A stretch of DNA of 64,000 bases, taken from the IMG/VR virus record IMGVR_UViG_3300029928_000003; one strand, 5' to 3'. A program made the position numbers and the translations under genes. Under the pieces are notes generated by a model, which worked only from the letters and a program-made list of their open reading frames with translations, searched no databases and was not told where the DNA came from. The DNA comes from a virus. Taxonomy: Duplodnaviria; Caudoviricetes. Within the stretch, counting starts at the first letter, position 1. Each line of letters opens with the position of its first letter. Positions 3,401-49,611 of this stretch are shown here, in pieces.

Positions 3401-6400
3401 GAGGGCTAGTATTAGCGGCTTCACGCATAATATCCATATTTACTGGAGAGTATGCCATATCCATATTTCTTGGATCTTGTATAATATCCTAAATATTATA
3501 GGATACTATATTACGTAGCACAGCTTCTAAATCTGATTGATTTATATTTGTAAGACTATGTATATTTAAATCGTTTAAGACACTATTTCCATCTACAGTA
3601 TCATCCCAAGTTACATAAGTAGTTAAACGCTTTGTTTTCTAATCGTAACTAATTTTATTATCTAACTAAACTAATAAATCAGCTTCTAATCTAAGCCTTT
3701 GTGCTTTGTTGATAGCTGATTCAATAGCTCTAATATTATCTGTAATATCAATTCCAGTATCCGCTTTCACAAAAGTAGCTCCTGTAGGTAATGGTAATCT
3801 CTGAGAGGCTCTTAATGTTTCAGGGGATGAGTAATCAAATAAATTACTCCATCCTATATATTTACCATTATCATCAAATTCTTGACCCATTATGTATGCT
3901 TTATCAATATCCGATTTATCTCATGTCTTTCAACACAAGTCCGACTATATCATCATTATATTAAAATATAATGTCTCGCACTTCGGAACCTGACTCTTGA
4001 AGTTTTATAAATTCTTCCTTAGTTAAATCTTTTCTTATCTTATAGAGAAAAGATGGAACCTGTTCTATGTATGGCTTTATTATTTTAATAAATTTTTCGC
4101 AGTCTAACTCAGAACTAGAAGCTATAGAGTATGTATTCCTACCCTCTTTAAAGGGTCTAAAATGTATACCCCATACTTCGTCGAAATAATTTATTATAGT
4201 TTTAATAGTACTATCATCAACACATGTTGCTATTTTAATAGTGTGTTGAATAGAACTTCTTTGTTTTGACGTATTAACATTAATACATCCATCATCCATA
4301 TACCAGATAGCTAATCCTAGAGGATTTAACCATTCTAATAGTTTTCTAGTAATAGTTTTCTTTGGAGTATAAACAGACCTACGTAATGCTTTTATTGTAG
4401 GAGTAAGTGACATTTGAGAATACAAAACACTTTTCCCAGTATTATATCCACATTTTGATATATATTCTTTTACTCCATTATTCTTGATTCCGTACTTGTT
4501 TAATAATCCCACTTTCCATTCCAAGTATTCTCTTTGTAATGGGGAATGAGAAAGCTTAAATACATAATTACTAGATATTGTCCCATCTCCTATCAATAGA
4601 GCTATTAATAAGCTCTTTTGTTCTTTACTAAGTCGAATAAATTTTCTTTTTGTCATATTTCGTTTAATAAAATTAGTTTTACTTAAACGAAAGTTCCTAC
4701 TCCCTTTCGGGATAGTCTGTGAACCTTCATCCTTATAAATATATAGATAATTTTGTCAACTGACAAGTCTTTTCTAAAAATATTTATCTAGGACGCTTGG
4801 CTGCGGATTGTCCAATCCTACATGCTTTTTACTATGTCAGCAATAGTTAGTTACTGCCTTTAGATGTATTCCTACTCTAAATTAGTACATATAGGCTCTA
4901 AGAAGTTCTCCGCAATTCACGAGATTTAAAGACTACAACTCTGTTTATAGTCTGAACCCTATAACCACGTCTAAAAATGGCTAACATAAGCTACATTTTT
5001 TTCACTTTCTGATAAAGCTACTAATTTCATCTACATAAACGATTGCAGGGTCTGTGCTGGAATACGAGAAGATATAAAGTATATTGAATTAGCAAAAGAT
5101 GAATATAATTCCTAAGCAAAAATATTATAATAGTCTACTAAGATATTATTATACTACTTAGCATACTCTGGATCTAACATAGTTTTCTTCTCTTGAAATG
5201 CCTTATCATATAAATTAATAATATTATTAAGGCAAGTCTTAAGAGTATTATTTACTTTTATATTAGGAATAATATCTTTTAATTGATTAAAAGTGCTTTC
5301 ACGTAAGTTAGTATTAAATCTAATTCCATTATAACTATCTATGTTATATAAATCAGAAATGATATTACTTATTCTTTTATCAATGTCTTTTTTAAATATA
5401 TTCTATACTTCTTTATTATTGATATTACCATTTGTATAATATCCAGCTTCTATAGAATCCCTATTAATAGAATAGACTGTAAAAGGTATTAATTCTTTAT
5501 TTTTACCTTGTTCAGTTATTTTATATTTTGATATATGTTCAAAGTACTTTCCTACCTTATCTCCATCTATTATCTTTAATCCCTAATCTTTAATATCTTT
5601 GTCTGTTAATATTTCTCCTTTACTATTCTTTATATTATTACCTTCTACAGAATAATTCTATAACCAGCTATAATGACCTACTTTTAGTAATTCTTGACGA
5701 TTTTTATCTAGGGCAATTACATCCCAACGTTGTCTTTGCGAGTCATATTCTAATTTAGTGCGCTTCCATCCTACATATTTAGGTGCTTTTGGGTCTAAGT
5801 TATTTACTTTAGGTCTAGTTAAAGTAATATATGTATTTCTACCATTATTCTTACTTAAAATAATATCGTACTTATCTGAATTAATCTAAGTAATTCTTCG
5901 GACTTTAAATACGTTTGGATTATCTAAGGCTTCAGCTAATGATTTATTTCCTAAATTAAATTTAGAAGCATATAGATTGGACATTACTAATTCGGCGGCT
6001 TCGTTTGTTAAATTGGTAATTTTATATCCTTTATAAATACCTTTAGCTAAGCCGTCAAATACTCTCTATACAGCTTTTCTATCCTTAGTATCTGTTAAGA
6101 AAGTATTTCGTACTTCTTCTGTATCAAATATATTAGTAAAGTGAGTATTTCCTTCATTATCCTAATACTCCCAACTAATCCTTGCTGGAGCTAAGTCTCT
6201 TGCTCTAGTAACATTCATAGCATATTCTATATTACCTACAATAGGCTATATAGTATCTGTTAATGTTCCATTTTTAGCAGCAATTCTTCCAGCTAAGAAC
6301 ATTCTTATATTAGCATCCCTTTCTTGTTCAGTAGGGTTTGGATTCGATTTGTTATAACCTTTGAATTGATAATAAGTATCAAGAGTATCTAAATTAATGG

Positions 6401-47000: not shown

Positions 47001-49611
47001 AAGCACCACATCCTAAATACCCATCGAATACATCAGGATCTTCTGTTTTGTGCACTCCAATATAAATTTTATTATTAATTTTATTAATTGTTTGATATAC
47101 TATATATTTCATAATATTGTTAAGTTAGTTCCCATTTCCACTAAAAAGTGTACGATTAAATAATCTAGTCGTTAAACCTCTATCTCAACTACCTATTGGC
47201 CTGTTATATGAGATATTTGGCTGCTGATTGCCATATCCGTAGATTTAGGTTTCCAGCAATTAAAGAACTTTATTTGTATAAGCCTCTCGACTTACCGACC
47301 CGTTTATTAAGCGGCGAAACTTAGTAAAAATTCAGGTCTACCAGTATCTGGATCACAGATTGTGGCCTTACCATTAGCGTCAATATTAGTTTTATTGAAT
47401 AACAAACCCTGGTTACGCGAAACAAGGAAGTTATCAAGGAGTTCTTTCTCCTTCTTATTCATTTTATAGATTGTTTCACTAAGACAACCTTGATTCTTGC
47501 CTTCTGCAATGCTTACAAATACATCTTCATGAGCAGCATAAAGCGAAGACCACGAGATATCATTACGGAATGTAGTAATATAATTGCGATGCTTCTCAAT
47601 ATTGCTTTGGCTCTTAACGTACCCTTCTTCAGAAAGTTCGGGCATTGCATTAGACTAGAATCTTGTAGTCATACCGACCTAACATCCTGATAAATCAAGT
47701 TCAGATGAATAATCATTATCAATTAAGCGAACAACTACCTCCCAGTAATCCATTTTATAGACTATATCATTTATTAATTTTAATTATATTGTCTTTAAAG
47801 TATTTATTACCTTGTAATAAATCTTTAATATTCTTTTTAGATAAATCATAATCTTTTTGTAAATCTTCAAGATTACTATATTTTTTTATAAAGTTACCAT
47901 ATTTATCATATACACTTATACCCTTATTAGTACATTGTGGCTCTAAATAAATATAGAAATCTTGATACTTATTATGATATTCTTCAAATATCTTACTTAT
48001 TTTGTTCCAAGAATGTAATTTAATTATCTTCATTAATTCTTTTCCTTTGCACTTTGTAATAAAATTCATATCAGAATCATATACATAAAATTCTGCACTT
48101 TTATACCTAGTCCTAGGTTTAGAATAGAATAGATCACACATTTTGGTAGAAACAAAATATTCATTATCTATAAGATTTTGAGATACTATATATTTCATTA
48201 ATTCTTTAATATCTAATTTAAGATATTTAGCGCAACTAAGTTTGGAATTAAATTCTCTTAATAGTTTACCATTCTTACTATATACATAATAATAATTAGA
48301 ATAAGTTTTATTTATAAATTCATTCAGTTTTATTTTATTATTAGTACTCCAATACGAATCTAGAAATAACACTTTACTATTAACCGCTGATTGAAATTTA
48401 AATGCAGAATAACCATAAAAAGATTCTGCTTCTCTGTAATTAGTCCATTTTTTAACTAATAGTCCTTCTTTATTGAATTGATAAATAGGAATATTTACGT
48501 GATCAATAAAAGTATTAAAAGTTCTAGCAGATTTAATAAAGTCTTTATTTAATAATTGATCTAATTTATTATATGCTTCTTGTTCATTATCATAAACATA
48601 TAGTACAACTCTTTTAAATTCTTTTGAACCGTATTTCTTAACTGCACATTGTAAAGGCGTTTTCGGGTATTTAAAACTAGAATTGGAATTAATCCAACAC
48701 CCTGCACCTATATAACCATCAAACTTATCTGGGTTTTCTGTTTTATGCACTCCTAAATAAATACGATTATCTCTTAAAGAGATAGTTAAAAAGACAATAT
48801 ATTTCATTTAATAATTCAGTTTTTTAATTTATTAATTTATAGGTTTCCCTTAGTCGTTGAACATTTCTATATAATATAGATATGCTGCTGATTATCAATT
48901 TGACTTTCCAGCAATTTAAAGAATTTATTTTAAAGCGAGACAATTAACTGGGTTGTTTATCACGCTTTCTGGTAGGCCTACTAACTACTATGCACTGTTG
49001 CATTGTTGCATCAATTTTAAAGATATCATACTTCTCATAGTAGCGTTCCTTAAATGCCATTACAATTTCGCCGCCATTCTCACCAGTTTCCTGGGGAACA
49101 TCTGCGAATTCAATACGTTTAATAAAGTTAGTTTCTACTTCCCATTCAAACATCATTGAATCTACTGATTGGAACTTATTTGCTCCCTTTACATCATTAT
49201 AGAAGATATTCTTTAATGATTCAGTAAGATATGTAGCGGTGTTTTCAGGATAAAGGCGTGATACTACGCCAAGCTTATGAGGGCGTGCGCCCAAGAACTT
49301 ATAGAAATCTTCATAAGTTCTAGTTTCTGACATCGTAGGTCTATTCAATATTGTTATCCTGTATCTTTTTAATTATACAGTTCTATTAGTTTACCATCCT
49401 AATAGTTCAGACTATATCTTCTATCTTCCGCGCTCGTGTCAATATTATTGATTGAGCTATCTCAATTGTTAGTCGTTGAACCTATTTCTTACTTCTATGC
49501 TCTTCAGAAAGTTGGCTGCTGATTACCCAAGAAATTATGAGGGAGGGTTTCCAGCAGTTCACGGAATTTAACGTCACCAAATAGCTCAGTGACAAAATTT
49601 GCAACTATCAT
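44046..49611 (-). CDS. Major capsid protein (HK97-fold, crAss type), 473 aa after splicing. Exons 49611-49588, 49345-48959, 47750-47334, 45983-45446 and 44101-44046.
   Basis: Spliced product MIVANFVT|NRPTMSETRTYEDF...RKRD|DYWEVVVRL...DPDTGRP|IYIGDGLIPQ...KLIMMG|YAGIGVFAPYRSFILRQA. Exon lengths 24+387+417+538+56=1422 nt. Two TAG(Gln) codons in exon 3. Lies between a scaffold-like gene and a terminator. Confidence 0.93.
44102..45445 (-). mobile_element. Group I intron 4 of MCP (1344 nt, phase 1) with a homing endonuclease ORF
   Basis: P1 GAUGGGUU/GAUCCAUC (U.G); P10 UCGGCA/UGCCGG. Core: P AAUUGCUGGAAA, Q AAUCAGCAGC, R GUUCAACGACUA, S AAGAUAUAGUC. Omega-G at 44102. Confidence 0.92.
44136..45233 (-). 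CDS. Intron-encoded GIY-YIG (Seg-like) homing endonuclease with NUMOD1-type repeats, 365 aa; TAG=Gln
   Basis: MNNNLKWIVYCTTNTINKKIYIGVH...YLGCG...YNMALGG followed by repeated VYQYD..GNF modules. At least eight in-frame TAG codons; ends at TAA. Confidence 0.87.
45984..47333 (-). mobile_element. Group I intron 3 of MCP (1350 nt) with a homing endonuclease ORF in P8
   Basis: P1 GACCU/GGGUC (U.G). P/Q/R/S elements present. P8 AACUUAA/UUAAGUU; P9 CAUUAAG-GAAA-CUUAAUG. Omega-G at 45984. Confidence 0.92.
46034..47112 (-). pseudogene. GIY-YIG/NUMOD1 homing endonuclease, apparently frameshifted near 46320 (the first frame 47112-46282 gives 276 aa)
   Basis: N-terminus MKYIVYQTINKINNKIYIGVHKT...YNMTLGG. 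After YESLS the domain continues in another frame as AARQNNTSTGNIIRAIK...IAQYDKDGNLIKIWDTI...GGYIFKYID, ending at TAA 46036-46034. Confidence 0.75.
47751..48958 (-). mobile_element. Group I intron 2 of MCP (1208 nt) with a very reduced ribozyme core and a homing endonuclease ORF
   Basis: P1 AAAGCGUGAU/GUCUCGCUUU (U.G); P10 CCCAGU-UAAUU/GAUUACUGGG. Core: P AAUUGCUGGAAA, Q AAUCAGCAGC, R GUUCAACGACUA, S UGAUAUAGUC. Omega-G at 47751. Confidence 0.88.
47767..48807 (-). CDS. Intron-encoded GIY-YIG-like (Seg-like) endonuclease with NUMOD1-type repeats, 346 aa
   Basis: MKYIVFLTISLRDNRIYLGVHKT...FDGYIGAG, paralogous to the ORFs in introns 3 and 4. Repeated IYQF/YVYS/YVYD...G.(L/F)(V/I)K modules. The TGA stop overlaps the S element. 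Confidence 0.85.
   Translation of the reverse strand: MKYIVFLTISLRDNRIYLGVHKTENPDKFDGYIGAGCWINSNSSFKYPKTPLQCAVKKYGSKEFKRVVLYVYDNEQEAYNKLDQLLNKDFIKSARTFNTFIDHVNIPIYQFNKEGLLVKKWTNYREAESFYGYSAFKFQSAVNSKVLFLDSYWSTNNKIKLNEFINKTYSNYYYVYSKNGKLLREFNSKLSCAKYLKLDIKELMKYIVSQNLIDNEYFVSTKMCDLFYSKPRTRYKSAEFYVYDSDMNFITKCKGKELMKIIKLHSWNKISKIFEEYHNKYQDFYIYLEPQCTNKGISVYDKYGNFIKKYSNLEDLQKDYDLSKKNIKDLLQGNKYFKDNIIKINK
49346..49587 (-). mobile_element. Group I intron 1 of MCP (242 nt, no ORF), after codon 8
   Basis: P1 GUCACU/GGUGAC (U.G); P10 CUAUU/AAUAG. Core: P GAACUGCUGGAAA, Q AAUCAGCAGCC, R GGUUCAACGACUA, S AAGAUAUAGUC. Omega-G at 49346. Confidence 0.92.

Follow-up and report, generated by a model that had tools for sequence, protein, structure and literature searches.

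How can a group I intron be removed from an essential phage gene when it lacks P9, which is counted among the elements of the group I catalytic domain (PMC3984707)? This question was raised by the major capsid gene in the virus record IMGVR_UViG_3300029928_000003 (Duplodnaviria; Caudoviricetes), of which a stretch of 64,000 nucleotides (nt), hereafter the window, was analyzed. The gene lies on the minus strand, reads TAG as Gln, and contains an intron with an open reading frame (ORF) for a GIY-YIG/NUMOD1 protein of 346 amino acids (aa). A sequence-only reading had described this intron as an ultra-minimal ribozyme without P9 that must splice, perhaps with help from its own protein or from sister introns. 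As read from the sequences, the loss of P9 is a family trait and not a single oddity. On balance, we lean towards a working, IA-like intron in whose clade P9 is dispensable, with guanosine-initiated splicing, a short tail that would return the terminal G, and a P10 pairing that would set the 3′ site.

The intron boundaries given in the sequence-only reading were borne out, including the length of 1208 nt, the flanks of the 346-aa ORF (151 nt and 16 nt), the missing P2, and the P5 of 4 bp. The junction CGTGAT/GATTAC was also correct. The spliced capsid protein read RPTRKRD/DYWEVVVRLID (slash, junction), and its length equaled that of twelve intronless homologues, such as RPIRKRDDFWEV and RPVRKADNYWEV. 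[quoted passage not shown] The intron split the capsid gene after about 130 codons, and both exons were open and conserved. Eight independent assemblies from ENA, Logan, and JGI contained the intron letter for letter, and its protein was indexed in 66 blocks of the sequence collection searched, which makes an assembly deletion very unlikely. The exact junction pattern had no match in the viral contigs, and a looser pattern had 3 matches. The automatic splice-site caller misplaced short exons, and only calls checked by eye were used.

A group I core with P4-P6, P3-P7-P8, and the P, Q, R, and S elements was present, according to a partial Rfam match and covariation. The match to Intron_gpI (48916-48849, E 1.7e-4) scored 32.6 bits, below the gathering score of 50 bits, because the 3′ half of the intron lies a kilobase away and P9 is missing. 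The 5′ half folded at z = −3.3. The P7.1/P7.2 insertion between P7 and P3, a criterion for phage-type introns of subgroup IA, was present, and by this insertion the intron appears to be phage-type and IA-like, presumably IA2. An alternative P3 pairing directly after P7, without P7.1/P7.2, was rejected by covariation. After the S element, 9 nt with no room for P9 had been reported; no hairpin was predicted there, but the first of these nucleotides closes P7 (A-U, or U-A in three relatives), which leaves a tail of 8 nt, the terminal G among them. At most, the tail could form a P9.0-like pair of 2 bp, closed by three A's. Likewise, the ribozyme size of 167 nt holds as a count of nucleotides outside the ORF but is an undercount of the ribozyme, because the last ORF codons serve as the P8 3′ strand and the UGA stop lies inside J8/7. 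The ribozyme measures about 183 nt, of which L8 takes up 4 nt. With such a core, with P7.1/P7.2 kept, and with related ORF-less introns of 179-197 nt, the term ultra-minimal was an overstatement.

Relatives of the intron, which the sequence-only reading had proposed to look for, were gathered by ORF searches and DNA patterns, and most solitary introns were thus found through their own ORF. A clade of capsid introns with one common core was recovered at four nearby sites. Over 29 relatives, 95.6% of the cells of the core alignment were paired and 18 of the 32 pairs were doubly changed, compared with at most 48% paired in slid controls. At site A, the site of the studied intron, 19 of the 21 introns had no P9 and ended in tails of 5-14 nt, while the other two (L053/L065) retained P9 and a GNRA-capped P2. 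At the neighboring site B (EV/ETN), P9 was missing from 12 of 13. Another clade member, L127, retained a canonical GNRA-capped P2 and P9. Moreover, P9 was absent from introns of other lineages at three sites. The ORFs of the P9-less relatives were only 37-74% identical to that of the window intron, which indicates that the P9-less state is old, and it is derived within the family because the same-site relatives L053/L065 keep P9. Mapping the P9 state on the ORF tree gave six changes, at least three of them forced by strong branches; many forks were poorly supported, and the count of losses is therefore uncertain. P9 was probably lost several separate times. A pattern scan of GTDB gave mainly chance matches and 4 real clade loci, and a search of GenBank phages gave only distant Seg-like nucleases.

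Several introns of the related capsid genes were without an ORF, and a small size was common among them. Lengths of 179, 185, 195, and 197 nt were found among ORF-less introns with and without P9, and ORF-less introns without P9 included ones of 222, 225, and 197 nt. The two shortest (L069:5395-5573 and 4091-4275, 179 and 185 nt) retained P9, and both were shorter than the Azoarcus intron. The 197-nt P9-less intron (L094:1813-2009) had a 5-nt tail and a strong P10 at the HR/VD capsid site. Near L115 positions 1310-1336, an EV/ETN-site intron of a different lineage lacked P9, had a very short P1 and P6, and was perhaps more reduced than the studied intron. The closest relative (L015:3948 region) had no P9 and essentially no P5, with 10 nt between the P4 strands, yet it kept P2, which shows that peripheral helices were lost in differing combinations. 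In addition, ORF-less clade members (L027:2093-2134, L058 near 2115, and L178; minus strand) retained the first codons of the ORF. In L027 and L058, a mini-ORF of about 13-18 codons remained in frame, beginning at the original AUG and closing at the UGA within J8/7, a hint that folding may depend on where the ORF starts and stops.

What takes over the task of P9 was then sought in the remaining pairings. Within the clade, the P10 energy was −8.7 kcal/mol in P9-less introns (n = 22) and −4.5 kcal/mol in P9-bearing ones (n = 7), and three sites each showed this direction. At site A, P10 was stronger as the tail became shorter (rho 0.61). The clade rows are related, and the p-values therefore overstate the significance. 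P9 loss was not tracked by P5 length (p = 0.74) or by P1 strength (p = 0.25), and P7.1 was capped by a GNRA loop in 26 of 29 members, regardless of P9. It has been reported that removing P9.0 or P10 singly leaves the second step possible, while removing both blocks it (PMC11417360), and the P10 trend in the clade fits this redundancy. A stronger P10 is probably the likeliest compensation for the lost P9, and the long P10 of the studied intron, which the sequence-only reading had missed, is the best candidate that can be named at sequence level.

In the mechanism that we favor, free guanosine bound in P7 would attack the 5′ site, as in standard group I chemistry. The short tail would loop the terminal G straight into the P7 pocket, and the long P10 would keep the 3′ exon in register for ligation and would take on 3′-site selection, a task usually shared with P9.0/P9. 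The intron would tolerate the loss of the L9-P5 and L2-P8 braces, for which the conserved GNRA loop of P7.1 (a speculative role) and general cellular RNA chaperones may make up. An intron-specific maturase would not be strictly needed, and the degenerate nuclease would be retained for another, probably DNA-level, job or would merely assist. This mechanism was favored by the intact nucleases in 16 of 29 P9-less introns and by the 197-nt ORF-less, P9-less intron of another lineage, in whose complete genome the closest ORF was only 37-40% identical to the ORF of that intron lineage. Other observations weigh against it. At other capsid sites, the P10 difference was not significant (−7.7 vs −6.6, n = 5 vs 42, p = 0.25), and strong P10s also accompanied P9. 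All five ORF-less clade members adjoined an ORF-bearing sister, the purifying selection on the degenerate ORF is explained only loosely by a view without a maturase, and P9 has been called an essential region (PMC3873408). The earlier claim of a natural P9-less intron that must splice was supported in so far as we infer splicing from the junction, the covariation, and the wide conservation.

The encoded protein offers a different explanation, in which it serves as an RNA maturase of the clade, acting in cis and in trans and replacing the P9/P2 braces, with one copy per gene being enough. The 346-aa protein matched NUMOD1 (E 2.6e-10), and TIGR01453 below its own cut-off. In the structure model (predicted local distance difference test score of 90), residues 1-100 had the fold of the I-TevI catalytic domain (Z 8.3, root-mean-square deviation 2.7, 85 residues aligned), and residues 168-224 matched the DNA-binding modules of I-HmuI and I-TevI. 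A sequence search of the PDB gave a chance match only. Phe6 and Leu82 were found where Tyr6 was kept in 106 of 120 homologues and Glu82 in 101 of 120; equating these positions with Y6 and E75 of I-TevI is based on motif position, and Asp83 is a possible substitute. The first tyrosine of GIY-YIG enzymes is the proposed general base (PMC3384342), and we infer that the nuclease activity was lost. The ratio of non-synonymous to synonymous substitution rates (dN/dS) against the 74%-identical relative was 0.26 (0.18-0.38) at dS 0.62, with 0.15 in the nuclease domain; a second degenerate pair gave 0.07, and pairs of intact nucleases gave values similar to the 0.26 (0.09-0.27). Low dN/dS, together with the absence of stops where a crude neutral simulation expected about 33 in the pair, indicates that the protein is still selected.

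This selection on a protein that lost both catalytic residues is what a maturase would explain, and degenerate LAGLIDADG maturases acting in trans provide a precedent (PMC3073962). Glu was lost in several branches, in 13 of 29 P9-less and 0 of 7 P9-bearing ORFs (p 0.03), but the association weakened to p = 0.11 after near-copies were collapsed. The five ORF-less clade introns mentioned above all lay in genes that retained another clade ORF, and the related genomes L053 and L065/L127 shared two clade introns with the ORF lost from opposite ones. However, the one-copy pattern was also true of two P9-bearing introns, it fits co-conversion during homing, the numbers are small, and the count is biased, since most solitary introns were found through their own ORF. 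P9 loss also occurred with intact nucleases, in more than half of the P9-less introns, and in ORF-less introns. Furthermore, the NUMOD1 and fold matches point to DNA-binding modules, and the group I maturases named in the literature searched were LAGLIDADG proteins only. A maturase role is a plausible possibility that we hold tentatively, and the dependence on the encoded protein put forward in the sequence-only reading is possible, with the selected degenerate ORF and the neighboring sisters in its favor. The wider proposal, that a widespread clade shed P9, and often also P2 and most of P5, because the GIY-YIG/NUMOD1 protein became a trans-acting, non-LAGLIDADG maturase, is in our view a slightly weaker possibility. 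If it is true, the clade would form a natural series from a complete ribozyme with an active nuclease to a P9-less ribozyme with a catalytically dead protein.

The other explanations seem far less probable. A P9-like brace might be supplied in trans or by long-range pairing, from a sister intron or another RNA, and a hairpin does follow P7 in every one of the three further group I introns of the capsid gene. However, in the relative with 74% ORF identity (L015-L017), which is P9-less, the 313-aa downstream capsid part was uninterrupted, and the tails of 5-14 nt held no conserved sequence able to recruit a partner, so this arrangement is improbable and the suggested RNA help from sister introns found no support. 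It is still a little less probable that the intron is a tolerated, decaying relic that splices poorly or never. The low Rfam score and the vanished peripheral elements would suit a relic, but the core pairs were nearly invariant or compensated, and the gene that would stay interrupted encodes the capsid protein in open and conserved exons. Least credible is a P9 hidden by a later 3′ splice site, an exon-made hairpin, or an assembly deletion, the three escapes that the sequence-only reading had itself named. It is possible to draw short AU-rich hairpins that span the 3′ junction; nevertheless, the junction region did not outdo shuffled sequences in folding (z −0.16 and −0.46), its best fold disrupted P7, and P10 uses the very first exon bases. 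A later site would also remove the conserved DYWEV residues, and the eight identical assemblies agree with dozens of diverged relatives.

Like the T4 td/I-TevI and SPO1 DNA polymerase introns, which are phage IA introns, the studied intron had P7.1/P7.2 between P7 and P3. In the T4 td and SPO1 introns, P2 and P9 are present and the encoded nucleases are active, whereas both helices were absent here and the nuclease was without two conserved catalytic residues. The Azoarcus pre-tRNA-Ile intron, of class IC3, is about 205 nt. It is a compact bacterial group I core, as here, but P2 and P9 are retained in it and P7.1/P7.2 are lacking, while the core of about 183 nt found here was AU-rich and ORF-bearing. 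The placement of the ORF in P8 with overlap of the core was similar to that of the SPO1 intron (PMC3073962 Table 1). In our literature search, which covered few subscription papers, no work described the present family, and the sole natural P9-less group I intron was Pa.rnl.1 of Prasinoderma mitochondria, a single, trans-spliced case of class IB for which the authors allow a missing third piece (PMC3873408). In contrast, the introns found here are cis introns and form a family that has dozens of members and includes intermediates. The LAGLIDADG maturases (I-AniI, bI3, and the Thermotoga 23S intron protein) are also degenerate homing nucleases kept inside group I introns with possible trans action, but they belong to a different nuclease family and their maturase activity is proven, while that of the present protein is putative.

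The phage itself appeared to be crAss-like, TAG-recoded, and gut-type. Delta and Zeta crAss-like phages with recoded stops were reported to carry group I introns in core genes, the capsid gene among them (Yutin et al. 2021, PMC7886860), and the capsid host gene, the several introns per gene, the nuclease ORFs, and the stop recoding were all shared with the present case. The intron-rich family there has genomes of 145-192 kb, a range that includes the complete relatives of about 152 kb found here; contigs of about this length also carried identical loci. In the passages of that report consulted, the introns were located by protein domains, with no description of RNA structure or P9 loss.

The features of the intron are listed in Table 1. 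The capsid gene (window 49611-44100, minus strand) apparently contained four group I introns, with a first exon of only 24 nt (49611-49588), and Rfam gave three group I matches within it. A hairpin 3′ of P7 was retained in all three introns other than the studied one. The nuclease ORF of the third intron (47112-46282, minus strand) had the catalytic Tyr and Glu and an early end, with 276 vs 283 aa among strains that differed by 1 nt in length; a decaying nuclease with an intact site thus adjoined an invariant degenerate one. Matches of the capsid exons to the crAss capsid family were weak, with E 0.044 to PF23898 for an exon fragment and weak precomputed matches for the longer homologous exons. 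A promoter scan was at chance level (16 vs 13.5).

Table 1. Positions in the window of the intron, its structural elements, and the adjoining exon ends.
Feature	Position	Strand	Evidence
Group I intron, second of four in the major capsid gene, 1208 nt, without P2 and P9	47751..48958	-	Rfam, spliced protein vs intronless homologues, 8 assemblies
5′ exon end, exon strand of P1, ending in U of the U·G pair	48959..48968	-	P1 fold
Intron strand of P10, pairs with first 10 nt of 3′ exon, one bulged U	48942..48952	-	Duplex −11.0 kcal/mol, 10 bp
Internal guide sequence, intron strand of P1, P3 directly after (no P2)	48932..48941	-	P1 hairpin z = −3.8
P3 5′ strand	48918..48925	-	100% of cells paired, compensatory change at one pair in 2 relatives
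P4, 4-bp P5 (48904-48894), P6, P6a	48861..48913	-	Rfam match, folding, covariation
P7 5′ strand (R element, bulged C, guanosine-binding G)	48851..48857	-	Rfam match; role from established group I structure
P7.1 (3 bp, GAAA loop) and P7.2 (4 bp)	48826..48850	-	Double-sided changes at 7/7 pairs
P3 3′ strand and P8 5′ strand, directly 5′ of ORF start	48808..48822	-	Covariation
346-aa GIY-YIG and NUMOD1 ORF in L8, Tyr6 to Phe, Glu82 to Leu, end overlaps P8 and J8/7	47767..48807	-	Domain searches, structure model, dN/dS
P8 3′ strand, J8/7 (contains UGA stop), P7 3′ strand (S element)	47759..47777	-	Core alignment
8-nt tail in place of P9, ends in terminal G; at most 2-bp P9.0-like pair	47751..47758	-	No hairpin predicted
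3′ exon start, exon strand of P10, codes DYW	47741..47750	-	Spliced protein, P10 pairing

The loss of P9 explains why such introns are under-called by standard models, as the studied intron fell below the Rfam threshold. A cis intron family in an essential gene, with tails down to 5 nt after S and with P9-bearing relatives at the same site, provides a test series for the minimal group I ribozyme. The same series is suitable for testing a trade-off between P9/P9.0 and P10. P9-less introns also offer compact ribozymes for RNA circularization. Moreover, the degenerate nuclease would represent a new class of maturase if splicing is helped by it.
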